64,000 nucleotides of DNA from Ignavibacteriota bacterium (GCA_963701295.1 OY969585.1:1440001-1504000), one strand, 5' to 3'; numbered from the stretch's first letter, positions 13,415 to 28,006 are shown. Notes: a model not told the origin generated them from the sequence alone. Translations and numbers: made by a program.

Positions 13415-15097
13415 TTAGGTTGTGACTGGTTTCTGTAGTGCAATAATTTCTGCTGCGCGGGATAAAGCTTCATCGAGACTGCCGATGAGATTGTCTTCGC
13501 CAATCGTATCAACAAACTGCGACCGCTGCATCGCGAACAGCGGTTGTGCATGCACACCGACGAGCAGAAGGGCAGTCTTTCCTTTCCGAAGACGTTTTAA
13601 TAAATCTTCCAATGCCTGGAGTCCCGTTGCATCGATTGTGATGACGTTGCGCATTTCAAGAATGAGTACTTTCGGCGCTTTTTCAATGCGCTGGACAGCA
13701 TCACGGAATTGTTCGATGGCACCGAAGAAGAGCGAACCGCTAATAGAAAATACTTCAACACCGGCAGGTACATTCCGTCGTGCTAATGTCGGTTCTTCTT
13801 CTTCTTTTTCTTCATCCTTCAAATCTTTTGTGATAAGGCCGATTTGTGTTGCATTCGACATGCGCTGCAGGAAGAGGAATGCCGCAAATACAACTCCTAC
13901 TTGAATAGCAACGGTCAGATCGATGAACACCGTAAGCAAAAATGTTGATATCAAGACGACAACATCACCCCGTGGTCCGCGAAGGAGTTTCCCAAACGCA
14001 TGCCACTCGCTCATAGTGTAAGCAACATAGATGAGAATGGCGGCGAGTACCGACATGGGAATGAGTGCTGCCCATTTGCCTGCAATAAGAAGAATGAGCA
14101 GAAGAACGACGGAATGAATGATTGCTGAAACTGGTGTACGGCCGCCGTTTCGGATATTCGTCGCAGTGCGCGCGATAGCGCCGGTTGCCGGAATGCCGCC
14201 GAATATTGGCGATAGAATATTGCCGATGCCCTGCGCTATCAATTCCATATTGGAACGGTGCCGCGTGCCGAGCATTCCATCAGCAACGACAGCAGAGAGG
14301 AGCGATTCCAAAGCGGCAAGTAACGCGATTGTGATGGCAGGTGAAAACATCTTGGTTGCTAACTTCCAGCTTATATGTGGAATATGCGGTGAAGGAAAAT
14401 GACTTGGCATACCGCCGAACTGCGATCCGATTGTTTCAACAGGCAGGCGAAAAATCGCAACCACAGCAGTCGCGATAATAAGTGCGATCAATGAACCCGG
14501 AATACGCTTTGTTATACGCGGCCAGAGTATAATAATGAGAAGCGAACCTAACCCGACAATCAAACTTGGAAAGTGAACTGTTGCGATGTTTTCTCCATAT
14601 GCCATCCACTTATCTAAGAACTCAGCGGGGACATCGTCCATCCGCAAGCCAAAGAAATCACGCATTTGCGAGGAGAAAATAATGAGTGCGATTCCGCTGG
14701 TAAATCCGACAACAACAGGATAGGGAATAAATTTTAGGAATACGCCCGCGCGCGCGATACCCATCACGACAAGCATAAGTCCAGCAAGAAATGTGGCGAT
14801 GACTAGACCGTTATAACCGTACTGATGCACAATGCCATAAATAATAACAATAAAAGCTCCGGTTGGACCGCTTACCTGCGCTCGGCTTCCGCCGAATATG
14901 GCAATAAAAAATCCAGCAATGATGGCAGTGTAAAGGCCTTGTTCAGGTTTCACGCCGGATGCGATAGCAAATGCAATCGCCAGCGGCAGCGCAACAATGC
15001 CGACAATAATGCCTGCCGTCAGATCTGAGGTAAAATCTTTTACAGAATACCCTTTACGGAGGATGGAAAAAAGTTTTGGTTCAAGACGCTTATTCAT
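13415..15097 (-). CDS. SulP/SLC26 anion permease with STAS domain
   Basis: GIIVGIVALPLAIAFAIASG, QVSGPTGAF, GAIARTATN; STAS DATGL motif. Confidence 0.93.
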   Translation of the reverse strand: MNKRLEPKLFSILRKGYSVKDFTSDLTAGIIVGIVALPLAIAFAIASGVKPEQGLYTAIIAGFFIAIFGGSRAQVSGPTGAFIVIIYGIVHQYGYNGLVIATFLAGLMLVVMGIARAGVFLKFIPYPVVVGFTSGIALIIFSSQMRDFFGLRMDDVPAEFLDKWMAYGENIATVHFPSLIVGLGSLLIIILWPRITKRIPGSLIALIIATAVVAIFRLPVETIGSQFGGMPSHFPSPHIPHISWKLATKMFSPAITIALLAALESLLSAVVADGMLGTRHRSNMELIAQGIGNILSPIFGGIPATGAIARTATNIRNGGRTPVSAIIHSVVLLLILLIAGKWAALIPMSVLAAILIYVAYTMSEWHAFGKLLRGPRGDVVVLISTFLLTVFIDLTVAIQVGVVFAAFLFLQRMSNATQIGLITKDLKDEEKEEEEPTLARRNVPAGVEVFSISGSLFFGAIEQFRDAVQRIEKAPKVLILEMRNVITIDATGLQALEDLLKRLRKGKTALLLVGVHAQPLFAMQRSQFVDTIGEDNLIGSLDEALSRAAEIIALQKPVTT

Positions 15098-15310
15098 AAT
15101 AGTAACTTTGCAAACTTTCTAAAAATCAATTTCTGGGAATGAAACAACTAGTTTATGATTACTCAATACTTCTTAAAAATACGGAATTCTTTCGGCTTTA
15201 TCATCAGCTAAAAAATGAAAAGGTTTTCATTTCCCGAAGGCAATTATTCCAAAAAATCCGTACGTTATCACTACGAAAAAAATAAAATTATATCTAAAGG
15301 AATTAATGTT

Positions 15311-16867
15311 ATGGCATTGAAACCTTTTAAGAATGAGCCGCCGACCGATTTCTCCAAACCGGTTAATCGAAAAGCGTTGGAAAAAGCGCTCGCCAAAGTC
15401 AAGGCTATGCTTGGAAAGCAATATCCGCTTGGCATCGGTGAGGAAGAAATTTTCACTGATGATAAACTGAAATCCATTAATCCCTCGCGGCCGAGCGAAG
15501 TAGTTGGAGTATTTTCTAAGGCAAATCCGGAGCTAGCAAATAAAGCTATTGAGACTGCGGCTGCAAAGTTCGATGAATGGAAGTGGGTCGATCCGAAAAA
15601 GCGTGCAGACTATCTCTTCAAAGCGGCGAAGCTCATGCGGCAAAGAAAACACGAATTCAGTGCGGTAATGATCTATGAAGTCGGCAAGACCTGGCCCGAA
15701 GCCGATGCAGATACAGCTGAGGCGATCGATTTTCTTGAGTTTTACGCCCGCGAAATGCTTCGCTTTGCGGCAAAGCAGCCGATCACAAAATTTCCGGATG
15801 AAAAAAATGAATTGTGGTATATCTCGCTCGGTGTTGGGGTTGTTGTGCCGCCCTGGAATTTTGCTCTCGCGATTCTCACTGGCATGACCTCTGCCGCTAT
15901 CGTTACGGGTAATACTGTGGTTTTAAAACCCTCAAGCGATTCTCCATTGACCGGCTGGATGTTCTTTAATCTGATGCGTGAGGTCGGTTTACCGGCTGGT
16001 GTGATCAACTTTGTTACCGGCTCAGGTGCATCGGTCGGTGATATTCTGGTTGGGCATCCAAAGACGCGTTTTGTGTCTTTCACTGGATCGAAGGAAGTCG
16101 GCATACACATTAATGAACTGGCAGCGATAGTGCAGCCTGGGCAAAAATGGTTGAAGCGTGTCGTTATTGAAATGGGCGGGAAAGATTCCATCGTGATCGA
16201 TGATCAAACGGATCTTGAAGCAGCGGCGCAAGCGACGATGGTGTCTGCATTTGGTTTTCAAGGACAGAAATGTTCAGCAGCTTCACGCGTTATTGTGGTA
16301 GAAAAAGTGTATGACAAATTTCTCGATATTCTGAAAACCAAGATTGACAAACTTACAATCGGTGAATCAGATAACCCGGAAAACTATATGGGTCCGGTTG
16401 TTAATAAGAGTTCGGAAGAGAAGATTCTTTCGTATATTTATAATGGAATTCAAGAAGGCGGTTATGTGATTTGTGGCGGGGTCAAAGCAGCGGGAGAAGG
16501 ATATTTCATACAGCCGACCATGATTGCGGTGGTCAATCCAATGGCAACGATTGCGCAGGAAGAAATTTTCGGACCGGTACTTGCGGTTATCAAAGCGAAA
16601 GATTTCGATCACGCACTTGAAATAGCAAACAATACCGAGTTTGGACTTACCGGCGGTGTGTGGACGAGGAACAGAAAGAAAATCGAGAAAGCAAAAAAAG
16701 TGTTCCATGTGGGAAATTTCTATGTGAATCGTAAGATCACCGGAGCGCTCGTTGGTGTGCATCCGTTTGGCGGATTTAATATGTCCGGCACAGATTCAAA
16801 AGCAGGTGGAAGAGATTATTTACTCCTCTTTATGCAGGCAAAAGCATTGTCGGAAAAAGTCAAGTGA
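15311..16867 (+). CDS. pruA: L-glutamate gamma-semialdehyde (P5C) dehydrogenase, RocA/PruA type
   Basis: PFKNEP, PPWNF, FTGS, EMGGK, FQGQKCSA, EEIFGP, PFGGFNMSGT. ATG at 15311 chosen for its AAAGGA RBS (ORF track begins at 15215). Confidence 0.92.
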   Translation: MALKPFKNEPPTDFSKPVNRKALEKALAKVKAMLGKQYPLGIGEEEIFTDDKLKSINPSRPSEVVGVFSKANPELANKAIETAAAKFDEWKWVDPKKRADYLFKAAKLMRQRKHEFSAVMIYEVGKTWPEADADTAEAIDFLEFYAREMLRFAAKQPITKFPDEKNELWYISLGVGVVVPPWNFALAILTGMTSAAIVTGNTVVLKPSSDSPLTGWMFFNLMREVGLPAGVINFVTGSGASVGDILVGHPKTRFVSFTGSKEVGIHINELAAIVQPGQKWLKRVVIEMGGKDSIVIDDQTDLEAAAQATMVSAFGFQGQKCSAASRVIVVEKVYDKFLDILKTKIDKLTIGESDNPENYMGPVVNKSSEEKILSYIYNGIQEGGYVICGGVKAAGEGYFIQPTMIAVVNPMATIAQEEIFGPVLAVIKAKDFDHALEIANNTEFGLTGGVWTRNRKKIEKAKKVFHVGNFYVNRKITGALVGVHPFGGFNMSGTDSKAGGRDYLLLFMQAKALSEKVK

Positions 16868-16935
16868 AATTGAGAGATTTTGAGATGGTTGATTTGATGA
16901 TTTTCAAATCGAAAATCTACAACCGGATAATATAA

Positions 16936-17445
16936 ATGTCTGAACTAATCAATTGCCATTACTGCGGAGATGAGGTTACAGTTGACAGTGATTTCTGTCC
17001 GCACTGCGGTGTATTGTTTGCCGAAGCTGGAGAAGTTTTTTGTGATGAACATTTGCAGGAATCAGCGATATGTGTCTGTATTATCTGTCGAAAAGTATGC
17101 TGTGAAGATTGTGGAGTGAAAGTTGCCGGGCGCACTTTTTGCCAGGCACATCGCAAAGTAAAAGTGCAAGAGGATTGGGCTGAAGTATTTCGGTCCACTG
17201 AAGTTGCAGATGCAGAATTGGTAAAATCCCTGCTGGAATCGACCGGCCATAAAGTTCTCTGTCAGAATTTTAATTCGATTGGTTTTGTATGGGATGGCGG
17301 CGGCGATTCGCCAATCTCACGCAGCAATATTAATAAACCTGCAAAAGTATTTGTGCCGATTCCGGAATATCTCCAAGCCATAGAAGTTGTATATGATTGG
17401 CGCTCATCACAGGCAGTGATACAGTTTGACGAAACTGGAATGTAG
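16936..17445 (+). CDS. Cys-rich protein: zinc ribbon + B-box-like zinc finger + DUF2007-like domain
   Basis: CxxC-x10-CPHCG; CDEH...CIIC..CC..C...C..H; C-terminal [12 protein letters not shown]...KVFVP..Y..A. Confidence 0.6.
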
Positions 17446-17470
17446 TTCAGACAAAGAGACGGTGTCTTTT

Positions 17471-18634
17471 ATGAAAATTCACGAATATCAGGGAAAAGAG
17501 ATTCTTAAAAAATATGGTGTTGCCGTACCAAAAGGAGAAGTTGCCTTCACTATTGATGAGGCAGTGAAAGTAGCCGAAAAAATCGGAGGCAGCGTGTGGG
17601 TTGTGAAAGCACAGATTCATGCCGGCGGCCGCGGCAAGGGCGGCGGTGTGAAGCTTGCATTAAGTTTTGAAGAAGTCCGTGAGCGAGCAGGAGAAATTCT
17701 CGGGATGCGCCTTATTACGCATCAAACTGGTCCGGAAGGGCGTATCGTCCGGCGGATTCTTGTTGAACAGGGGATGAATATTGCGCGTGAGTTGTATGTC
17801 GGAATTACACTTGATCGTCAGCGCACACAAAATGTTGTTATGGTTTCCACGGAAGGCGGAATGGAGATCGAGAAAGTCGCCGCGGAGACTCCGGAGAAGA
17901 TATTAAAAGAAGCAGTTGATCCCGCTTTCGGGTTACAGCAATTTCAAGCACGTTCACTTTGTATTCGGCTCGGCTTAACGGACGATGCATTGAAAAATGG
18001 CGTAAAATTCCTGATGGCTCTCTACAAAACATATGAAGCTTCCGATGCATCGCTGGCGGAAATCAATCCGCTTGTGATTACACAGGAAGGGCATGTCATT
18101 GCACTTGATGCAAAGATCAACTTTGATGATAATGCACTGTTCCGTCATCCGGAGTATGAGAATTTAAGAGATATCGACGAGGAAGACCCGCTGGAAGTCG
18201 AAGCATCAGCTTCAAATCTTAATTATATTAAACTCGATGGAAATGTCGGCTGTATGGTCAATGGAGCCGGACTTGCGATGGCGACGATGGATATTATCAA
18301 GCTTGCCGGTGGGATGCCGGCAAACTTTCTCGATGTCGGCGGCGGTGCAAATGCGCAAACCGTAGAAGCTGGATTCAAGATTATCCTCAAAGATGAGAAT
18401 GTGAAAGCGATTCTCATCAACATTTTCGGTGGGATTGTCCGCTGTGATCGTGTTGCAACGGGTGTGGTTGAAGCGGCAAAGAAAGTTGATGTGCAGATTC
18501 CGATCGTTATTCGTCTTGCCGGAACGAACGCAGAACTAGCTGCAGAGATTCTGCAAAACTCCGGATTGAAATTCTTAGTCGCACGCAATTTAAAAGAAGC
18601 GGCACAGAAAGTAACACGTGCAATTGCGGCGTAA
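17471..18634 (+). CDS. sucC: Succinyl-CoA synthetase beta subunit
   Basis: [45 protein letters not shown]. Confidence 0.97.
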
Positions 18635-18664
18635 AGTGCTCGATTTGATAATCGATTTTCTGTT

Positions 18665-18702
18665 ATCTCAATTACTCATATACTCATTATCTCATTGACT
18701 CT
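18665..18702. repeat. Degenerate 8-bp-period tandem array (ATCTCA/TACTCA + 2 nt)
   Basis: atctcaat tactcata tactcatt atctcatt gactct, in the sucC-gatB spacer. Confidence 0.7.
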
Positions 18703-18705
18703 ATA

Positions 18706-20163
18706 ATGTCTTGGAATGATCATTACGAACCTGTGATTGGGCTTGAAGTTCACGCACAACTCTTGACCAAATCGAAGACATTCTGTAGCTGCTCGACAAA
18801 ATTTGGGAATGAGCCGAATTCTCATGTGTGCCCCATCTGTCTTGGAATGCCGGGAGTGCTGCCGGTGATGACCAAGAATCACGTAGAATATATTATGAAG
18901 ATGGGATTGGCGACGAATTGCACAATTGCACCAAAATCGATCTTTGCACGGAAGAATTATTTCTACCCCGATCTTCCGAAGGGCTACCAGATTTCGCAGT
19001 ACGAAGAACCTATTTGCATCAACGGCTGGCTGGATGTTGAACTGAAGGATGGCTCAACCAAGCGTCTCGGTATCACACGCATCCATATGGAAGAAGATGC
19101 GGGCAAGTCAATACACGATCAGGATATCGACACGCTAGTGGATGTGAACCGCTGCGGTGTTCCGCTTATTGAGATTGTTAGTGAACCGGATATGCGCTCA
19201 CCGCATGAAGCATATCAGTACCTCTATAAAATTCGCCAGCTTGTGACCTATCTCAATATCTGCGATGGTAATATGGAAGAGGGAAGTTTACGGTGCGATG
19301 CAAACGTTTCGGTGCGAAAAAAAGGAGAAACAAAGCTTGGAACAAAAAGGGAAGTAAAAAATCTGAACTCATTCCGGTTTGTCGAAAAAGCATTGGAGTA
19401 TGAAATTGAAAAGCAGATAGAAACGTTAGAAAACGGCGAAACCATTGTTCAACAGACATTATTATGGGATTCCAGTAAAGGGATTTGTATTCCGATGCGT
19501 TCGAAGGAAGAAGCACACGATTATCGCTATTTTCCTGATCCCGATCTCGTCCCGGTATTGGTTAGTCAAGAGTGGGTCAACTCCGTGAAAGCGACGTTGC
19601 CTGAACTTCCAATGGTACGCCGTAATCGTTATATCACTGAATTTAAATTGCCGAAGTACGATGCCGACATCCTTACTGCCGAACATGAACTGGCGGATTA
19701 TTTTGAAGGTGTTGTTACTTGTCTCAGCAAAAAAAATGAAGAAACGTACAAGCTCGCGAGCAACTGGACGATGGTGGATGTTCTGCGGGTTGTGAATGAT
19801 CAGCATATCTCGGTTTCCCATTTTCCAGTTTCACCCAAAAATTTATCCGAGATGATCGATTTAATTGTCGATGGAACAATCAGCGGTAAGATTGCCAAAG
19901 ATGTCTTTGAGGAAATGTTGAAATCGCAGGATTCACCCAAATCGATCGTGGAAAAGAGGGGTTTAATGCAGGTGAGCGATGAATCTGTAATTGGAAAAGT
20001 GATCGATGAAATTCTTGCGAACAATCAGGGACAAGCAGAACAGTATAAAAGCGGAAAGCAGCAGGTCTTTGGATTTTTTGTCGGTGCGACAATGAAAACG
20101 ATGAAGGGGAAAGCGAATCCGAAAGTGGTGAATGAGGTGTTGAGGAAGAAGTTGAGTAGTTGA
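18706..20163 (+). CDS. gatB: Asp/Glu-tRNA amidotransferase subunit B
   Basis: [45 protein letters not shown]. Confidence 0.97.
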
Positions 20164-20205
20164 GATATTGAGATGATAAGATAGTGAGATAAAAGATTTT
20201 GAGAG
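20161..20205. repeat. 8-bp-period TGAGAT array upstream of the four-helix-bundle gene
   Basis: tgagatat tgagatga taagatag tgagataa aagattt tgagag. Confidence 0.75.
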
Positions 20206-20215
20206 GGCAAAATCA

Positions 20216-20581
20216 TTGCATAACTTAGAAGAACTACAGGTGTATCATAAAGCATTAATCTTTACAAAAACGGTTAGAAAGATAGTGAAGGCTTTTCCAA
20301 AAGACGAATTGTTTGGATTGATTTCTCAATTTAAGCGGGCGGCTGATTCAATTGTTCTTAATATCGCTGAAGGAGCAGGTAATTCTTCAAATAAAGAATT
20401 TATTCATTTTCTTGACTATTCTATTCGTTCATCTTTTGAATGCAAAGGATGTCTGGATATAGCACTTGAAAATAGTTTTGTCAATGAGGATGAGCATCAA
20501 AAAATGATAACTAATGCAAACGAACTTATTGCAATGCTTTATGGACTCCAAAAGCATCTAAAACAAAAACAGAAATCTTAA
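20216..20581 (+). CDS. Four helix bundle protein (23S rRNA intervening-sequence protein/Avd-like family)
   Basis: LEELQVYHKA...FPKDELFGLISQFKRAADSIVLNIAEG...EFIHFLDYSIRSSFEC. TTG start. Confidence 0.92.
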   Translation: MHNLEELQVYHKALIFTKTVRKIVKAFPKDELFGLISQFKRAADSIVLNIAEGAGNSSNKEFIHFLDYSIRSSFECKGCLDIALENSFVNEDEHQKMITNANELIAMLYGLQKHLKQKQKS

Positions 20582-20586
20582 ATTAC

Positions 20587-20623
20587 ATCTCATAATCTCA
20601 ATTTCTTATAATCTAATATCTTA
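20587..20623. repeat. 8-bp-period ATCTCA array downstream of the four-helix-bundle gene, inverse of the upstream array
   Basis: atctcata atctcaat ttcttata atctaat atctta. Confidence 0.75.
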
Positions 20624-20648
20624 TTCAACTAAACAGAAAGAAAGCATC

Positions 20649-21407
20649 ATGCGTCTCAAAGTAATCGCCGGTAACTGGAAAATGAACAAAGACTTGAATG
20701 AGTCAGCAGAACTCATCAATGGTCTCAAATCGAAACTTACAACGTTGCCGAATGGCGTGAAAGCCATTGTCTGTCCACCGTTTATATCTCTTGCACTTGC
20801 AAAGGAACTGCTCAAGGGATCGCCCATCGAACTCGGTGCACAGAATATGTATTATGAAGACGAGGGAGCATTCACGGGAGAAGTTTCGGCAAAAATGCTC
20901 AAATTAGTCGGATGTAAATATGTTATCCTTGGCCATTCTGAACGTCGCCAGTACTTTAAAGAATCGGACGAGTTCATCAATACAAAAGCAAAGAAGGCTC
21001 TTGCATCGGGATTGATTCCAATCATTTGTATTGGCGAGACGTTGCAGGAGCGCGAAAAGAATATTACAAATCAGGTGGTAACAACTCAAGTCGCTGGATG
21101 TCTGAAAGGTATTCAAGCATCCGATGTCGAAAAATCGATTATAGCATACGAGCCGGTATGGGCAATTGGAACGGGAAAAGTTGCGACTCCACAGCAAGCA
21201 CAGGATGTGCACAAACTCATTCGTGGGCTTGTTGCTCAATTGTACAGCTCTGCAACGGCGGAGAAAGTCGTTATTCAGTACGGCGGCAGCGTGAAGCCGG
21301 ATAATGCAAAAGAACTTTTGCATCAGCCCGATATTGACGGCGCACTCGTTGGCGGCGCTTGTCTGAAAGCGGATTCGTTTGCTGCAATTGTACAAGCAGC
21401 GGCTTAA
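20649..21407 (+). CDS. tpiA: Triosephosphate isomerase
   Basis: AGNWKMN, GHSERR, AYEPVWAIGTG, YGGSV, LVGGA. Confidence 0.98.
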   Translation: MRLKVIAGNWKMNKDLNESAELINGLKSKLTTLPNGVKAIVCPPFISLALAKELLKGSPIELGAQNMYYEDEGAFTGEVSAKMLKLVGCKYVILGHSERRQYFKESDEFINTKAKKALASGLIPIICIGETLQEREKNITNQVVTTQVAGCLKGIQASDVEKSIIAYEPVWAIGTGKVATPQQAQDVHKLIRGLVAQLYSSATAEKVVIQYGGSVKPDNAKELLHQPDIDGALVGGACLKADSFAAIVQAAA

Positions 21408-21432
21408 GTTAGCTTGTCGAAATATAAAAGTT

Positions 21433-21470
21433 AAGAGGCGGCACTTGAAGAGGTGCTGCCTCTTTTTTTT
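21433..21470 (+). terminator. Rho-independent terminator after tpiA
   Basis: AAGAGGCGGCAC...GTGCTGCCTCTT followed by a T tract. Confidence 0.85.
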
Positions 21471-21525
21471 ATCTTCACATTAGATTAACGCGTGTTTCTT
21501 GGATGTTACGGGAACTTTCCGTAAA

Positions 21526-21554
21526 TTTCGACTGTTTAACTAATATAGTCGAAA
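21526..21554. promoter_or_regulatory. Candidate TetR operator (TTTCGACT-N13-AGTCGAAA)
   Basis: Inverted repeat immediately 5' of the tetR start and RBS. Confidence 0.55.
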
Positions 21555-21562
21555 GGTCAATC

Positions 21563-22183
21563 ATGGAAAATAAGCTTTCGAGAGACAAAGAAGAACTCAT
21601 TTTGCATGCCGCCCAGCGCCGGTTTGCCGCGTATAGTTACTCAAAAGTGACCATGGACGAGATTGCCGATGACATCGGCATGGCAAAAGCTTCTCTCTAT
21701 TATTACTTCCCTACAAAGGAAGCAATTTTCCGGTCAGTGGTTCAGCATGAACAGGAAGAGTTTCTCGCCCAGGCAAAAGAAGTCCTTGCACTTAGTGGTT
21801 CAGCATGCAATAAGATGGTTGAATATGTTCGCCTCCGGATGAAGTTGACTGAACGGCTCAGCAATCTCAGCCAGATTCATCAGCAGGCATGGCACGATGT
21901 CAAACCGATCTTTCAGGAACTCTTCAAGACATTCATTCAGCATGAGCTTCAATATGTAACACAAATCCTTCAGGAAGGCAAGAAATCAGGTGAGTTTCAT
22001 CTTGAAGAACCCAAAAAAAATGCATCCATGATTTTGCACGTCCTGCAAGGACTTCATCTCAGATTCTTTCAAGGATATGATCAACAAGCAATCAGTGAAT
22101 CGGAACATGAGTTATTTGAATATGAAACTCTACTTTTTGTAAATACCATTCTTCTCGGTCTTTGCAAGAAATTAAAACATTAA
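21563..22183 (+). CDS. TetR/AcrR family regulator of the efflux operon
   Basis: HTH ILHAAQRRF...TMDEIADDIGMAKASLYYYFPTKE. ATG at 21563 with GAAAGG RBS. Confidence 0.92.
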   Translation: MENKLSRDKEELILHAAQRRFAAYSYSKVTMDEIADDIGMAKASLYYYFPTKEAIFRSVVQHEQEEFLAQAKEVLALSGSACNKMVEYVRLRMKLTERLSNLSQIHQQAWHDVKPIFQELFKTFIQHELQYVTQILQEGKKSGEFHLEEPKKNASMILHVLQGLHLRFFQGYDQQAISESEHELFEYETLLFVNTILLGLCKKLKH

Positions 22184-22205
22184 TACAGCGAAAGGATATT
22201 CTTTT

Positions 22206-23219
22206 ATGCCACAGCAAGACGACAAAGTTGTAAAACAAAAACCTCAATTATCCGAGCAACGTGAAATCAATACTACGAACGGAAACGATGCAGCGCCGAT
22301 TGAATCGGTGCCCCTCTACAGAAATGTAAAAGTAGTTATACCGCTTTTTCTTGTAGTACTGGCGATTGCCATTTTTGCATGGCAGTATTATGTGACGTTA
22401 CGCGACTTTGTCTCGACGGACGATGCATACATAGACGCAGACAGGGTTTCTGTCAGTGCGAAAATACTCGGGAGGATAGATCAACTGACCGTCGACGAAG
22501 GAGATTCAGTTCGGCAAGGACAAATTCTGGTAAGGTTGGATGACAGCGACTTGCGTGCGCAGGAAGCACAGGCGAAAGCCTCGCTCGCGTTTGCCCGGGA
22601 AAATATATCACTTGCAAAAGTTAACTTGGAGAAAGCGCAGCTGGATTATCAGCGGGCATTGTCACAATTTAACCAGAACATTATTCCAAAAGAGCAGTAT
22701 GACCATGCGCAAAGCGAATTTGAATCGACCAAGGCGCGGCTCAATATTGCCAATGCGCAGACAGCAGCCGCACAGGCACAGCTTGGCGTGATCCAAACAC
22801 AATTGACGAACACCGTGATCGAATCACCGATGACAGGTGTTGTTTCTAAGCGCTGGGTTTTGACAGGTGATGTTGTGCAGCCCGGTCAATCTATTTTCAC
22901 AATCTATAATGTGAAAGACGTTTGGGTGACGGCAAACCTGGAAGAGACGAGTCTGTCTAATTTGCGCCTCGGTGATAAAGTGGACATAAGCGTTGACACC
23001 TATCCCAATATAAAATTTATCGGGACTATTCTACGTCTCGGTTCCAATACAGCATCGCAGTTTTCTTTGATTCCACCTAATAACGCATCCGGGAATTTCA
23101 CAAAGGTAACCCAGCGTGTTCCGATAAAGATCTCTATCGAAAAGGTAGACAGCGATCATTCTCAACATGTCGAATTACTGCCCGGTATGTCGGTTGAAGT
23201 CAAGGTGAAGGTTCGTTGA
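22206..23219 (+). CDS. emrA: EmrA/HlyD-family periplasmic adaptor
   Basis: STDDAY; FSLIPPNNASGNFTKVTQRVP; LLPGMSV. Confidence 0.92.
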   Translation: MPQQDDKVVKQKPQLSEQREINTTNGNDAAPIESVPLYRNVKVVIPLFLVVLAIAIFAWQYYVTLRDFVSTDDAYIDADRVSVSAKILGRIDQLTVDEGDSVRQGQILVRLDDSDLRAQEAQAKASLAFARENISLAKVNLEKAQLDYQRALSQFNQNIIPKEQYDHAQSEFESTKARLNIANAQTAAAQAQLGVIQTQLTNTVIESPMTGVVSKRWVLTGDVVQPGQSIFTIYNVKDVWVTANLEETSLSNLRLGDKVDISVDTYPNIKFIGTILRLGSNTASQFSLIPPNNASGNFTKVTQRVPIKISIEKVDSDHSQHVELLPGMSVEVKVKVR

Positions 23220-23221
23220 CT

Positions 23222-24841
23222 ATGTTTTCAGGAATAACACATCGTTTGAAATTAGGGTTTACTCATCGTGTACCGTCACTTCATCATGAACATACCTCGT
23301 ACCGCTGGTGGGTTCTGGCGAACGTGATGATCGGCACTTTTATGGCAGTGCTCGATGCCACGATCGTGGATGTTTCCTTATCGAAAATTATGGCATCGTT
23401 CGGAATTACTGTTGATAAAGCCGAATGGGTGATTACCGCATACATGCTGGTCTTTGCAGTCATGCTCCCGACATCGGGATGGATCGCAGATCACTTTGGA
23501 TATAAGAGAACTTATTTTTTAGCATTATCATTGTTTACTTTAGGTTCATTTCTCTGCGGGCAGGCTTGGAATGAAAATATGCTTATCATTTTTAGAATCG
23601 TTCAGGCGTGCGGCGCGGGATTGATAATGCCAACCGGCATGGCGATTGTGACTCGCGAATTTCCACCCCAGCAGCGCGGAGTTGCGCTTGGGTTCTGGGC
23701 TATTGCAGCAGCAGCTTCCGTTTCGCTCGGTCCAATGATAGGAGGATATCTCATTGATAATATAAATTGGAATGCAATTTTTAATGTGAATGTACCTGTT
23801 GGCATTATGGGTTTGTTTGCAACGGCGGTCATTCAGCGTGAATATAAAACGGAGCGCACGAGGTCGTTTGACGTGATTGGATTCGTATCGATGGCAACGT
23901 TTCTTTGTGCGCTTCTGCTGGCATTGACGGATGGCAATGCTTCGTGGAATACCGGCGGGTGGTCGTCTCCGTTTATCACTTCGTGTTTTGTTATATCGGC
24001 ATTCGGGCTTATTGTGTTCTTAGTGACGGAACTTACCATTGAACATCCGCTCATTGACTTGAGTTTGCTCAAGGATTTTAATTTTAGCGTAGCAAACGGT
24101 ATTCTCTTTATTTTCGGATTCGGGATGTTCGGCAGCACATTTTTGCTTCCTCTGTATCTCCAGCTGTCGATGGGATATACGGCATTTCAGGCAGGCTCGC
24201 TGTTTTTACCTGTCGGTATCCTTCAAGCGATCACCGCTCCGATTTCCGGCTTTCTGTCGGATAAGGTAAATCCCAAAATTCCTGCTGTTATCGGCATTAC
24301 ATTATTGGCATTGAGCCTTTTCATCAACAGTTCATTGTCTTTGTATTCGGAACGTCATCAGATTATGCTGGCACTGTACATCCGCGGATTTGCCATGGGA
24401 TTGATGTTCACGCCTCTTTCAATGACGGCGCTTTCCAATATTCCGCGGCACAAAATTGGGCAGGCATCCGGGTTATTTAATGTCATTCGGCAATTAGGCG
24501 GGAGCTTCGGCATTGCTTTTATGAGCACATTGCTGCTGCGGCGTACAATTTATCATACAGCAGCATACAGCCAGGTCGTGAACTCTCAATCAGATGCGTT
24601 TCAACAAACTGCACAACATTTAGCGCGTTTCAGCATGAATGCGGTTGGCGGAAATCAATCTCTTGCAGTGATGCGTGCTCATGCTCTTATTGCCTCGCAC
24701 ATTTCTACCCAGGCGTTTATCCGTGCTGTTGGTGACGACTTTTTGGTGGCATCGATTATCACTATTGCTGCGCTTGTCCCCATTTTATTCCTTCGTGTAC
24801 GAAAACGAGAGAAATCCGAACATGTATCGGTAATGGAATAA
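23222..24841 (+). CDS. emrB: DHA2/EmrB MFS efflux permease, copy 1
   Basis: GTFMAVLDATIV, WVITAYML, GPMIGGY; 14-TM pattern. Start at 23216 (TTG) or 23222 (ATG). Confidence 0.92.
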   Translation: MFSGITHRLKLGFTHRVPSLHHEHTSYRWWVLANVMIGTFMAVLDATIVDVSLSKIMASFGITVDKAEWVITAYMLVFAVMLPTSGWIADHFGYKRTYFLALSLFTLGSFLCGQAWNENMLIIFRIVQACGAGLIMPTGMAIVTREFPPQQRGVALGFWAIAAAASVSLGPMIGGYLIDNINWNAIFNVNVPVGIMGLFATAVIQREYKTERTRSFDVIGFVSMATFLCALLLALTDGNASWNTGGWSSPFITSCFVISAFGLIVFLVTELTIEHPLIDLSLLKDFNFSVANGILFIFGFGMFGSTFLLPLYLQLSMGYTAFQAGSLFLPVGILQAITAPISGFLSDKVNPKIPAVIGITLLALSLFINSSLSLYSERHQIMLALYIRGFAMGLMFTPLSMTALSNIPRHKIGQASGLFNVIRQLGGSFGIAFMSTLLLRRTIYHTAAYSQVVNSQSDAFQQTAQHLARFSMNAVGGNQSLAVMRAHALIASHISTQAFIRAVGDDFLVASIITIAALVPILFLRVRKREKSEHVSVME

Positions 24842-24888
24842 AAAAATTTCAATAACAAAGACAGGATTATACAAAAGACTGAAAAAAA

Positions 24889-25017
24889 ATGAATAGAATG
24901 AAAATAGTTTTATCGGTAGTCTTTCTTCTCGACGGTGTTGCCGCAGGTCAAGATTCGATGACAGTCGAACAGGCCGTTCAGAGAGTCCTTCGAATTACTG
25001 CCCGGCATGTCGGTTGA
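24889..25017 (+). pseudogene. Chimeric remnant: tolC 5' end (34 codons) fused to an out-of-frame emrA 3' end
   Basis: Translates as MNRMKIVLSVVFLLDGVAAGQDSMTVEQAVQRVL-RITARHVG*. The first part matches 26708 onward; from 24991 it matches 23171 onward. Confidence 0.9.
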
Positions 25018-25041
25018 AGTCAAGGTAAGGGTTCACTAATC

Positions 25042-26661
25042 ATGTTTTCAGGAAAAACACATCGGTTGAAACAAGGTTTTATCAGCCGTCTACCGTCGCT
25101 TCACCACGAACACACCTCGTACCGCTGGTGGATTTTGGCGAACGTGATGATCGGTACTTTCATGGCTGTGCTCGATGCTACGATCGTGAATGTTGCCTTG
25201 CCGAAAATTATGTCGTCGTTCGGAATTACTGTCGATAAGGCCGAATGGGTGATTACCGCATACATGCTGGTCCTTGCTGTCATGCTCCCGACATCCGGAT
25301 GGATCGCAGATCACTTCGGATACAAGAGAACATATTTTTTAGCGTTGTTCTTGTTTACAGCCGGCTCGTTTCTCTGCGGGCTGGCATGGAATGAAAATGT
25401 GCTCATCATTTTCAGAATCGTTCAGGCAAGCGGCGCAGGATTGCTGATGCCGACCGGCATGGCGATTATAACCCGTGAATTTCCGCTGCAACAGCGCGGC
25501 GTTGCGCTTGGGTTCTGGTCTATTGCAGCAGCAGCTTCCGTATCGCTCGGTCCAATGATAGGAGGATATCTCATTGATAATCTTAATTGGTATACAATTT
25601 TTAACATAAATGTACCGATCGGGATAATCGCTTTATTCGCAACGATGGTCATTCAACGTGAATATAAAACAGAGCGCACACGGTCGTTTGATGTGATTGG
25701 ATTCATATCGATGGCAACGTTTCTTTGTGCGCTGATGCTGGCACTGACGGATGGCAATGCTTCGTGGAATACCGGCGGGTGGTCTTCGCCGTTTATCGTT
25801 TCGTGTTTTGTTATATCAGCGTTCGCACTTGCCGTGTTCTTAATGACGGAATTTACAATTGAACATCCGCTCATTGACTTGCGCTTGTTCAAGGATTTTA
25901 ATTTTAGCGTAGCAAATAGTATTCTCTTCATTTTTGGACTCGGGATGTTCGGCAGCACATTTTTGCTTCCCCTGTATCTCCAGTTATCGCTGGGATACAC
26001 GGCATTTCAGGCAGGCGTGATTTTTTTGCCTGTCGGTATCCTTCAAGCGATCACTGCTCCGATTTCCGGCCTGCTGTCGGATAAGATAAATCCTAAAGTT
26101 CCAGCGGGTATTGGCATTATATTATTGGCATTAAGCCTTTTCCTCAACAGTTCATTGTCTTTGTATTCGGAACACCATCAGATTATGCTTCCACTCTACA
26201 TCCGCGGATTTGCCATGGGATTGATGTTCACACCTCTTTCGATGGCGGCGCTTTCCAATATACCTCGGCACAAAATCGGCCAGGCATCCGGGTTATTCAA
26301 TGTTATTCGGCAATTGGGCGGGAGCTTCGGTATTGCATTTATGAGCACATTGCTGCTGAGGCGTTCCATTTATCACATGTCAACATATAGCGAGGTTGTG
26401 AATCAACAATCGGATGCATTTCGTCAGGTTGCGCAGCATTTGACGCGTTTTAGTATGAATGCAGTTGGCGGGAACCAATCTCTTGCAGCGATGCGCGCCA
26501 CAGCGTTAATTGCATCGCACATTTCTACTCAGGCATTTATCCGTGCTGTTTGCGACGACTTTTTGGTAGCATCGATTATCACTATTGCTGCGCTTGCTCC
26601 CATTTTATTCATCCGTGTACGAAAACGAAATAAATCTGAACATATATCGGTAATGGAATAA
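25042..26661 (+). CDS. emrB: DHA2/EmrB MFS efflux permease, copy 2
   Basis: Close paralog of 23222-24841 at an 1820-bp offset. Confidence 0.92.
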   Translation: MFSGKTHRLKQGFISRLPSLHHEHTSYRWWILANVMIGTFMAVLDATIVNVALPKIMSSFGITVDKAEWVITAYMLVLAVMLPTSGWIADHFGYKRTYFLALFLFTAGSFLCGLAWNENVLIIFRIVQASGAGLLMPTGMAIITREFPLQQRGVALGFWSIAAAASVSLGPMIGGYLIDNLNWYTIFNINVPIGIIALFATMVIQREYKTERTRSFDVIGFISMATFLCALMLALTDGNASWNTGGWSSPFIVSCFVISAFALAVFLMTEFTIEHPLIDLRLFKDFNFSVANSILFIFGLGMFGSTFLLPLYLQLSLGYTAFQAGVIFLPVGILQAITAPISGLLSDKINPKVPAGIGIILLALSLFLNSSLSLYSEHHQIMLPLYIRGFAMGLMFTPLSMAALSNIPRHKIGQASGLFNVIRQLGGSFGIAFMSTLLLRRSIYHMSTYSEVVNQQSDAFRQVAQHLTRFSMNAVGGNQSLAAMRATALIASHISTQAFIRAVCDDFLVASIITIAALAPILFIRVRKRNKSEHISVME

Positions 26662-26707
26662 AAAAATTTCAATAACAAAGACAAGATTATACAAAGGACT
26701 GAAAAAT

Positions 26708-28006
26708 ATGAATAGAATGAAAATAGTTTTATCGGTAGTCTTTCTTCTCAACGGTGTTGCCGCAGGTCAAGATTCGATGACAGTTGAACAAGCTGTTCAA
26801 CGAGTTCTCCAAACCCACCCGGCTATTGAACAAGGATTGGCTAATACACGTGCCGCCGAAGCGCGTGTCCAACAAACATCAAGTATGCGCATGCCGGATG
26901 CAGACATTGAAGCATCGTATGCTTACCTCGGTCCCCCTATTCCTTTTTATTTCGGAGTTTTGGGGCCATTTCAGTTTTATCCAAACAATAATTATGACGC
27001 TCATGTCGGAGCTGGTTATATGCTGTACGATTTCGGGAAGACAAGTGCTGTCATCGACGCAGCACAATCTCACGTTCAATCTGCGCGGAATATGGTTGAG
27101 TTAACAAAAAACGGATTGGGTTATCAAACCATTCGAACATTTTATACGATATTGTTTCTCCAAAAATCAATCCAGGTGGCGGATGAACAAATTGAAACGT
27201 TCAACGAACATCTCTCTCTTACTCGGAAAAAGGTCAACGTCGGAACTGCGACAAGTTTCGATGTCCTGACAACTGAAGTTCGTGTCGCCTCTGCTCAGAA
27301 TCAAAAAGTAGAATTGGAAAATTCTCTACACCAGCAAGAATCTATATTGCGCCAGTTACTCGGTGAAAAAGAAGCATCTCCGATTACACTTGTCGGCGAA
27401 TTTACAATGACTCCTGTAGCGCTAAATGCCGATTCACTTATAGAACAAGCATTCGCACAGCGCGTGGAACTGAAACTTGATCGGAATGCTCAAACGACTG
27501 CCGACCTCCAGTATAAAGTGGCATCCCGCAGCAATGTACCGTCACTCCATATCAACGCAGACTACGGCATAAAGAACGGGCTCTATTTTCCCGACCTTAA
27601 CGTCATTCGCGGTAATTGGGCTCTTGGCGCACAAGTACGCGTGCCTGTGTTCGACGGCTATCGCGTTGACCATATGGAAGAAGAAGCGCAAGCGATGATA
27701 CGTGCGGAACAGGCGCATGCGCAAAATACGGAACGGCAAATTCGATCAGATGTTGAACAGTCCGTGGCTGATGTTCAGGCATCGTGGTCGAATGTTCAAA
27801 TTTCAGACGTGCAGCTTCAGCAGGCACATGAAGCGGTCGCTATCGCACGAACGCGGTACGAGACGGGTTCTATTACTAACCTTGATCTTTTGGATGCAGA
27901 GACTGCCGAATCGACATCAAAGCTTATGAGTTTACAAGCACTCTATCGCTACGTCATCAGCAAATATGAGCTTGAACATGCGGTTGGCGCATCGTTTTCT
28001 TATTGA
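26708..28006 (+). CDS. TolC-family outer membrane efflux protein
   Basis: Signal peptide; repeated OEP motifs (GTATSFDVL, RYETGSITNLDLLDAE); position in the efflux operon. Confidence 0.9.
   Translation: MNRMKIVLSVVFLLNGVAAGQDSMTVEQAVQRVLQTHPAIEQGLANTRAAEARVQQTSSMRMPDADIEASYAYLGPPIPFYFGVLGPFQFYPNNNYDAHVGAGYMLYDFGKTSAVIDAAQSHVQSARNMVELTKNGLGYQTIRTFYTILFLQKSIQVADEQIETFNEHLSLTRKKVNVGTATSFDVLTTEVRVASAQNQKVELENSLHQQESILRQLLGEKEASPITLVGEFTMTPVALNADSLIEQAFAQRVELKLDRNAQTTADLQYKVASRSNVPSLHINADYGIKNGLYFPDLNVIRGNWALGAQVRVPVFDGYRVDHMEEEAQAMIRAEQAHAQNTERQIRSDVEQSVADVQASWSNVQISDVQLQQAHEAVAIARTRYETGSITNLDLLDAETAESTSKLMSLQALYRYVISKYELEHAVGASFSY

Follow-up and report, generated by a model that had tools for sequence, protein, structure and literature searches.

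Four-helix-bundle (FHB) proteins of the PF05635 family have, to our knowledge, been without an assigned function for three decades. Among the closest described systems is the 23S rRNA intervening sequence (IVS) that Coxiella burnetii carries in helix 45, in which, according to the accessible text of the report, tandem GACAGAT heptamers precede an S23p ORF and RNase III cuts the stem (PMC4990558). A second is Avd of diversity-generating retroelements (DGRs). In the accessible description the five Avd protomers all make contact with a single RNA stem-loop, whose flipped-out bases sit in the inter-protomer crevices (bioRxiv 10.1101/2023.10.23.563531), and the likeness of the FHB family to Avd is noted in the available part of another paper (PMC10053308). 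The closest solved relatives of the protein described below, Xcc0516 (2GSC) and BT_0352 (2RLD), are S23-family proteins of unknown function with five chains per entry, and their accessible descriptions mention neither a ligand nor flanking arrays. FHB genes are also scattered inside cas loci (PMC3936711) and found in rRNA insertions of CPR bacteria (bioRxiv 10.1101/2024.02.27.582315), the accessible text of both papers making no mention of flanking arrays. Intergenic heptameric repeats of Xanthomonas and Nostoc, often convergent inverted pairs, are described as over-represented and unexplained in the accessible part of a further study (PMC4692102), the main text of which mentions neither 'four helix' nor 'S23'. 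In a literature search that covered mainly the main texts of freely accessible papers, we found no account of FHB genes with inverted periodic arrays on either side.

Such an arrangement occurs between gatB and tpiA of an Ignavibacteriota bacterium. The locus lies in a 64,000-nucleotide stretch of DNA (GCA_963701295.1 OY969585.1:1440001-1504000), which we call the window and from whose first letter positions are counted unless they are given for the genome. Its features are as follows.

16869..16887, + strand: possible two-word 5'-type remnant after a P5C-dehydrogenase-like gene (weak)
18664..18702, + strand: orphan octamer arm of 3' type immediately ahead of the gatB start, left over at the neighbouring junction
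18706..20163, + strand: gatB, host gene (ORF listing and family scan)
20150..20207, + strand: 5' arm, purine-rich 8-nt-period array of the word T-R-A-G-A-T-n-n (word positions, duplex)
20216..20581, + strand: gene for the FHB protein (PF05635/TIGR02436), 121 aa, 'AGAT' allele, octamer clade (HMM, model)
20586..20631, + strand: 3' arm, reverse-complement array of ATCTCA-like words (word positions, fold, duplex)
20649..21407, + strand: tpiA, host gene (the predicted stem stops just short of its start region)

The rocA/pruA label of the P5C-dehydrogenase-like gene comes from its translation rather than from a family scan. Downstream of tpiA, two tandem and closely similar DHA2-type MFS transporter genes (23216-24841 and 25042-26661) lie in a TetR/membrane-fusion/TolC-like efflux cluster, labelled from translations with TetR alone family-scanned. 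One congener has a second, partial tpiA C terminus 1.2 kb past tpiA (L013; G010:C7:94795-94923).

The gene and its inverted 8-nt arrays are a real feature, with the start of the 5' array corrected to a position inside gatB. The FHB ORF has a TTG start, encodes 121 aa and lies on the + strand between co-directional gatB and tpiA. The 5' array consists of five words in exact 8-nt register (TGAGTA 20153, TGAGAT 20161, TGAGAT 20169, TAAGAT 20177 and TGAGAT 20185, spanning 20153-20190), then takes one 7-nt step and ends in two weaker words at 20192 and 20200. The initial annotation had placed about five TGAGAT-nn units directly after the gatB stop. The 8-nt-period array is there, but it begins within gatB and supplies its stop, the last gatB codons being word 1 and the TGA itself word 2. 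At 20 of 32 occupied gatB sites, among them every one of the genus's 13 full-length loci, a TRAG word supplies the gatB stop through its TRA. The 5' arm ends in the SD-like GAGAGGG (20201-20207) of FHB. The 3' array had been described as about five ATCTCA-nn units after the FHB stop; five reverse-complement words are present (ATCTCA 20587, ATCTCA 20595, TTCTTA 20603, ATCTAA 20611 and ATCTTA 20618), but only two of the five are perfect. Arms and gene together make a cassette of ~480 nt.

The encoded protein matches both family models over its full length, with 109.7 bits against PF05635 (cut-off 33.8) and 101.7 bits against TIGR02436 (cut-off 24). Its structure model (pLDDT 95.9) has helices at residues 8-24, 29-54, 59-85 and 91-120 and is a four-helix bundle that matches pentameric 2GSC with a TM score of 0.91. 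TM scores are 0.79 against 2RLD and 0.76-0.79 against the Avd chains 4DWL, 8UB7 and 8UBE, the latter at 7-10% identity and Foldseek E values of 0.13-0.4; by sequence, 2GSC (E 3e-9) is closer than 2RLD (E 4e-4). By analogy with 2GSC, 2RLD and Avd, the FHB protein is likely to be a homopentamer. Within alleles (defined below) the median dN/dS is 0.07 across 26 pairs, which indicates purifying selection and therefore that the protein is made and matters to something.

In the accessible account this unit and the Coxiella IVS share a PF05635 protein, complementary termini over the ORF, tandem AG-containing repeats before it, sporadic presence and similar size, 428-444 nt against ~480 nt (PMC4990558). 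At gatB-tpiA, the closing of a stem over the ORF by complementary termini is by prediction only (z -2.5 and -2.9), and presence among relatives is sporadic (14/16, 0/9 and 3/15 genomes; see below). Unlike the Coxiella element, which lies in rRNA, has a 28-bp near-perfect stem and carries an ORF reported as decaying, the present cassette lies between protein genes, would form a bulged stem of period-8 repeats and encodes a protein under purifying selection (PMC4990558, accessible text). Membership among rRNA IVSs proper was rejected because the cassette is not in rRNA: the single 23S gene of the genome is elsewhere (genome 457535-460552) and overlaps none of its eight FHB loci, and an Rfam scan of 19900-20900 returned no family (best E 3.1).

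Avd shares the fold, and its pentamer contacts an RNA stem-loop with five protomers in the accessible report (bioRxiv 10.1101/2023.10.23.563531). In DGRs, however, Avd has a reverse transcriptase partner, whereas here there is none and the flanks are periodic inverted arrays. A DGR was rejected on the finding of 0 matches to PF00078 in the 99%-complete genome (3 of 14 control genomes were positive). The initial annotation's remark that no transposase or reverse transcriptase is nearby holds, none being recognised among the ORFs listed in 14000-27000, five of them family-scanned. An insertion sequence or MITE was likewise rejected: FHB is the sole ORF, and comparison of occupied with empty junctions by eye gave no target-site duplication. 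The Xanthomonas and Nostoc repeats resemble the arms in being short-unit intergenic tandem repeats in inverted pairs; in the accessible text they are G-rich 7-mers studied as quadruplexes, whereas the units here are 8-mers tied to one protein clade (PMC4692102). The gatB-tpiA unit would thus work like an ORF-bearing IVS yet outside rRNA, and is neither a DGR nor an insertion sequence.

The layout is not peculiar to this junction. All eight FHB genes of the genome (one frameshifted) have, by eye, a purine-rich periodic array on the 5' side and a pyrimidine-rich one on the 3' side, the word differing from locus to locus. Within the genome the cognate arm was the best inverted match at six of the eight loci by 5-mer sharing (permutation 5/40320) and at four by duplex energy. 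Relatives and public genomes together yielded 203 FHB hits, of which 157 were kept after partial, edge and duplicate ones had been dropped. Across these loci, related ones among which are not independent, inverted 5-mer sharing was 16.3 for cognate arms, 8.5 for non-cognate arms and 7.2 on the same strand, and the cognate arm fell in the top tenth at 107/157. A held-out metagenome set (57 kept from 83 hits) gave 15.4 against 8.5, with 28/57 in the top tenth. The association of FHB genes with flanking inverted arrays therefore extends to other loci (6/8 in this genome, and the further sets of 157 and 57). Both neighbours are co-directional at 162 of 185 FHB loci with enough flank, compared with 259/499 size-matched genes, by a crude ORF rule and with this genome alone as baseline. 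A scan of viral contigs for FHB cassettes returned one locus, hence no sign of phage carriage at that sensitivity.

Two observations concern individual loci of the collection. In several alleles (genome FHB loci 3382824, 1029290 and 1027001, and relatives) the 3' arm starts within the FHB frame, so that the repeat encodes the protein's tail. A close FHB cassette at L191 sits in a Bacteroidota-like context on a contig labelled as a Synechococcus bin and is possibly mis-binned.

We then turn to pairing of the two arms. In the predicted fold of 20150-20650 the arms close over the FHB gene (z -2.52, 2/100 shuffles as good), and the arm-arm duplex has an energy of -32.9 kcal/mol against -22.6 +/- 3.6 for shuffled arms (z -2.9, 4/500 as good). 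The proposal that the arrays are reverse-complementary and could pair over the gene is thus borne out by prediction, the stem being bulged and of moderate stability. Raw duplex energy, with no correction for composition, ranks this locus 102 of 3092 genes. As a marker of FHB loci it was abandoned in favour of cognate against non-cognate comparisons, only three of the eight loci falling in the top 3.3% and five being unremarkable, because the arms are AT-rich. Nor does pairing energy alone need allele-matched arms, since 5' arms of the TC allele pair better with 3' arms of the CC allele (-53.5) than with their own kind (-41.2).

The orphan arm at 18664-18702 is kept in most congeners and could pair with the cassette's 5' arm, looping out gatB instead (-29.6 kcal/mol, z -2.0, 18/500 shuffles); pairing of the 16869..16887 remnant with the orphan arm was not significant (z -1.6).

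The period of the arms follows the protein. Among the 157 loci it is 7 in 84, 8 in 38 and 6 in 8, with 27 unclassified. A quick tree was built of 121 of 214 proteins, those sharing an EGAG-type motif. On it the present FHB belongs to a clade of 47 (SH-aLRT 97), of which 41 have period 8, five are unclassified with a best lag of 8 and one has period 7; outside that clade period 8 occurs in 2/74. It also appears with a few unrelated proteins, seven of the 38 period-8 loci lying outside the clade. The 8-bp period first ascribed to the arrays therefore holds here but not for the family as a whole, in which 7 is usual and 8 is the property of a clade. All five period-6 loci on the tree form one clade; L203, L209, L307, L309 and L310, with a DHE[RK]L-like N terminus and 6-nt arms, group together (SH-aLRT 100). 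No residue separates period 8 cleanly from its period-7 sisters, F74 and position 109 being best, with exceptions. Octamer-clade sites include gatB-tpiA, other junctions of the same operon (before sucC, and sucC-tpiA) and unrelated sites.

Arrays of this kind are uncommon between genes. In a strict periodicity scan, which missed this locus's own 3' arm and lacks the sensitivity for a listing of other cargo, 4/2307 intergenic gaps passed, and the present 5' gap was the sole one of period 8. When the genome was scanned for TRAG arrays, period 8 was not enriched at >=3 words (15 against 1-15 at other periods) and was enriched only at >=4 words (5 against 0-2). Further intergenic TRAG arrays of 8-nt period, with no FHB gene beside them, occur at genome positions 200076, 476883, 783256, 1092128, 1367228, 1533702 and 2252082 and at 2670-2690 of the window. 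Some are of AGCC/AGTC type, matching no present FHB of the genome, and these FHB-less arrays were likely left by other alleles. In another genus, the FHB-less gatB-tpiA gap of L029 holds a 3'-type octamer array with a different, ATCCATTA-like word, which also frames the unrelated long-branch FHB of L147; the L029 and L147 arrays are a second octamer system.

Occupancy of the gatB-tpiA site is patchy. We found tpiA in 41/41 genomes, 16 of them from the genus, which holds no more. The cassette is at gatB-tpiA in 14 of these 16 (FHB in 13/15 congeners, one copy 5'-truncated); of the other two congeners, one retains the 3' ATCTCA arm, FHB and the 5' arm having been lost, and in the other no gatB adjoins tpiA. 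In other genera of the family it is present in 0/9, eight of which have a direct gatB-tpiA junction of 10-172 nt, and in other families it occupies the site in 3/15 examined genomes (G035 left out). Empty sites thus exist in relatives, and the gene is not fixed.

Among carriers the words of the two arms change together (AGAT/ATCT, AGTC/GACT, AGCC/GGCT and AGTA/TACT). Alleles were labelled from these words at 16 sites, the truncated one being left out. The AT, TC and CC alleles are found in four genomes each, each with its own FHB lineage. On the FHB tree they are starred clades that require four changes, the minimum, and 0/200 shuffles were as low. On the host tree, which is made of the two genes gatB and tpiA only, they require 10 changes (shuffled mean 9.9), and an AU test rejects each clade. 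The closest host (DNA identity 93% in gatB and 87% in tpiA) has an FHB only 60% identical and a different word, and in the three closest host pairs of different allele (synonymous difference 0.21) the FHBs are just 57-66% identical. Pairs of the same allele (26) differ at synonymous sites by 0.31 in FHB and by 0.43 in the host genes; for pairs of different alleles (94) the values are 0.51 and 0.45. In some same-allele pairs from distant hosts FHB has diverged about half as far as the host genes (0.21 against 0.46, 0.18 against 0.36 and 0.20 against 0.48). The flanks showed no co-conversion: up to the final 10 codons of gatB and the initial 10 of tpiA, distant pairs were equally divergent whether they shared an allele (21 pairs) or not (50 pairs), and the exchanged block therefore ends in or at the arms. 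Since the alleles are discordant with the host tree, the cassette has likely been swapped between species as a single block, protein and word together. The 'minimal mobile unit' of the initial annotation gains direct support from this discordance.

At the sucC-gatB junction three congeners (L214 4019-4601, L223 4049-4481 and L224 4049-4679) carry a two-gene insert, a small ORF plus a DUF6036/DUF2204 nucleotidyltransferase (family-scanned in L214 and L224; shortened in L223). Its 3' arm is made of 8-mers, and L223 and L224 also have a 5' arm, of 7-mers; these hybrid arms recur in other congeners with nothing enclosed. The arms thus bracket non-FHB cargo too.

The arm words themselves bear on possible recognition by the protein. 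At 46 loci, with a median of 5-5.5 words per arm (range 2-15), the AG core is fixed and the spacer bases vary; word detection allowed 1-2 mismatches, and only comparisons between positions count. An AG-containing core predominates across the arms of the FHB family. In the 3' arm, C>U changes in the core that keep a G-U pair were seen in 5/278 cases, compared with 7/284 in the 5' arm. That the core is fixed although wobble would be free suggests that the word is read, not merely paired. Across 80 loci a wobble test gave no excess, G-U-making changes numbering 101/2057 and mismatch-making ones 91/2103. The R position alone leans towards RNA (G:A 203:76 in the 5' arm and 153:108 in the 3' arm, p 6e-4, the loci not being independent), and a coding-strand C>T bias would give the same lean. 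Recognition of the word in duplex form fits the wobble, core and pairing results.

Residues that might specify the word were also sought. L4 goes with AG-A in 8/8 and E2 with AG-C in 8/8, with two independent changes each, which is not significant; N3 gave a median p of 0.5 over five starred pairs, and the held-out set added no further independent L4 case. No general amino-acid-to-base code could be made out, the mutual information being diffuse and its columns clade-driven. Linkage alone would suffice for the covariation of protein and word, and a residue-to-word code is suggestive at most.

A search of sequencing runs gave no run with >0.12 of the words. Relatives' contigs, which cannot show RNA ends, contain no gatB-tpiA joint that skips FHB. 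An RNA library yielded one 668-nt contig that extends from gatB across a 5' arm into FHB; it may be uncut RNA or DNA. The genome has an RNase III gene.

The reading we favour, to which we would give an even chance, is that of an IVS-type cassette at an mRNA junction, exchanged between species, whose ring protein, likely a pentamer, would read its own paired words. The interpretation given in the initial annotation is partly upheld: the predicted pairing, the association at other FHB loci and the unfixed site all stand, the mobile unit gains support, and the 'mRNA intervening cassette', with a protein that may bind the repeats, is a predicted reading. The cassette would have no promoter of its own and be read from host operons, which would account for its co-directional seat at stop-to-start junctions. 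Within the transcript of the operon, a bulged stem of ~35-40 bp is predicted between the arms, and RNase III would possibly cut it, as it does the stem of rRNA intervening sequences. A cut at the junction would spare both host cistrons, much as a cut in an rRNA loop spares the ribosome. Judging from the homologues, a five-subunit ring may read one AG-centred word per subunit interface, with the N-terminal residues and the helix 2-3 loop, which topology places at one end of the bundle, likely setting the word. Movement would most likely be by host recombination at the outer words, because neither cassette nor genome supplies a reverse transcriptase and no flank travels along.

The foremost rival, though on balance an unlikely one, acts at the level of DNA. 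The arms would be inverted arrays of binding sites at the ends of a mobile unit (as dsDNA or single-strand hairpins), bound by FHB and cut by a host or trans enzyme, with RNA pairing a by-product. It would explain the strand symmetry of the arms, which behave like copies of a single word with the AG core fixed in both and no excess of wobble, and why exchange is precise and without flanks. The same clade's presence at unrelated sites and at further junctions of the operon, as well as the arms around the nucleotidyltransferase gene pair next door, would also be expected. It sits poorly, however, with RNA binding by the homologue Avd, with an orientation that is strongly co-directional with host genes rather than random, and with the lack of target-site duplication, by eye, between occupied and empty junctions. 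No catalytic partner was found either, and a 7-8 nt period falls out of phase with the B-DNA helix.

We also entertain, with comparable doubt, the possibility of a nuclease-free mobile cassette whose ends are bound, sequence-specifically, by FHB, the FHB alleles being specificity groups that displace one another precisely at fixed junctions, in a homing-like manner without an endonuclease. The N-terminal residues would then choose the word and the clade would set a period of 6, 7 or 8 nt, while specificity groups would replace one another across species ~25% apart in DNA.

Improbable, in our estimate, is a TRAP-like switch, in which the ring would wrap the single-stranded 5' array near its own RBS, autoregulating or tuning tpiA coupling, with the 3' arm as an antisense sequester. 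A TRAP-like geometry of a fixed core word with variable spacers, ~5 words per arm, a 5' arm ending in FHB's own SD-like GAGAGGG and purifying selection on FHB would all suit such a switch. Where wobble would be free, however, the core of the 3' arm is no less strictly kept than that of the 5' arm, and absence from the site in 9/9 sister genera, together with insertion between unrelated gene pairs, is a poor fit to a host regulator.

We hold it still less probable that the arrays are neutral repeats, with slippage making 7-8-mers, inverted-repeat conversion copying one arm to the other and FHB hitchhiking without recognition. Copy number does shift by whole units (a relative's contig has an 8-nt deletion at 20159, and arms range from 2 to 15 words), and template switching would give exact Watson-Crick symmetry. 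Against this, whatever the host or site, period and word track the protein tree (period 8 in 41/47 within the clade and 2/74 outside, period 6 in one clade), AG-containing cores predominate in the family and few other intergenic gaps have such arrays. Finally, that there was no exchange at all, the genus ancestor having had several tandem cassettes of which each lineage lost all but one, is very improbable: the alleles are old (median dS 0.95) and FHB and host divergence correlate weakly within alleles (Spearman 0.46, 26 non-independent pairs), but two FHB genes occur at gatB-tpiA in not one of the 16 genus genomes, FHB has diverged about half as far as the hosts in several same-allele pairs, and nearly every lineage would have to have lost cassettes at least three times in parallel.

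To the described FHB systems this site adds the octamer clade and three protein-word alleles. It is a natural experiment, in which sister species carry, at one chromosomal position, three old alleles that are each marked in both arms by an 8-base word of their own, and a clean case, in that these protein-plus-word alleles are likely exchanged there without their flanks. Binding specificity is therefore directly testable. Should the cassette prove nuclease-free, with FHB as its end-binding factor, this would account for the rRNA IVSs and for many unexplained 7-8-nt bacterial repeats. If its members are ring-shaped readers of periodic nucleic acid whose word and spacing can be retuned, the family would link rRNA IVSs, Avd and periodic repeats; such a reader would offer a route for precise gene movement without a recombinase of its own, and a compact, programmable scaffold for binding RNA or DNA.
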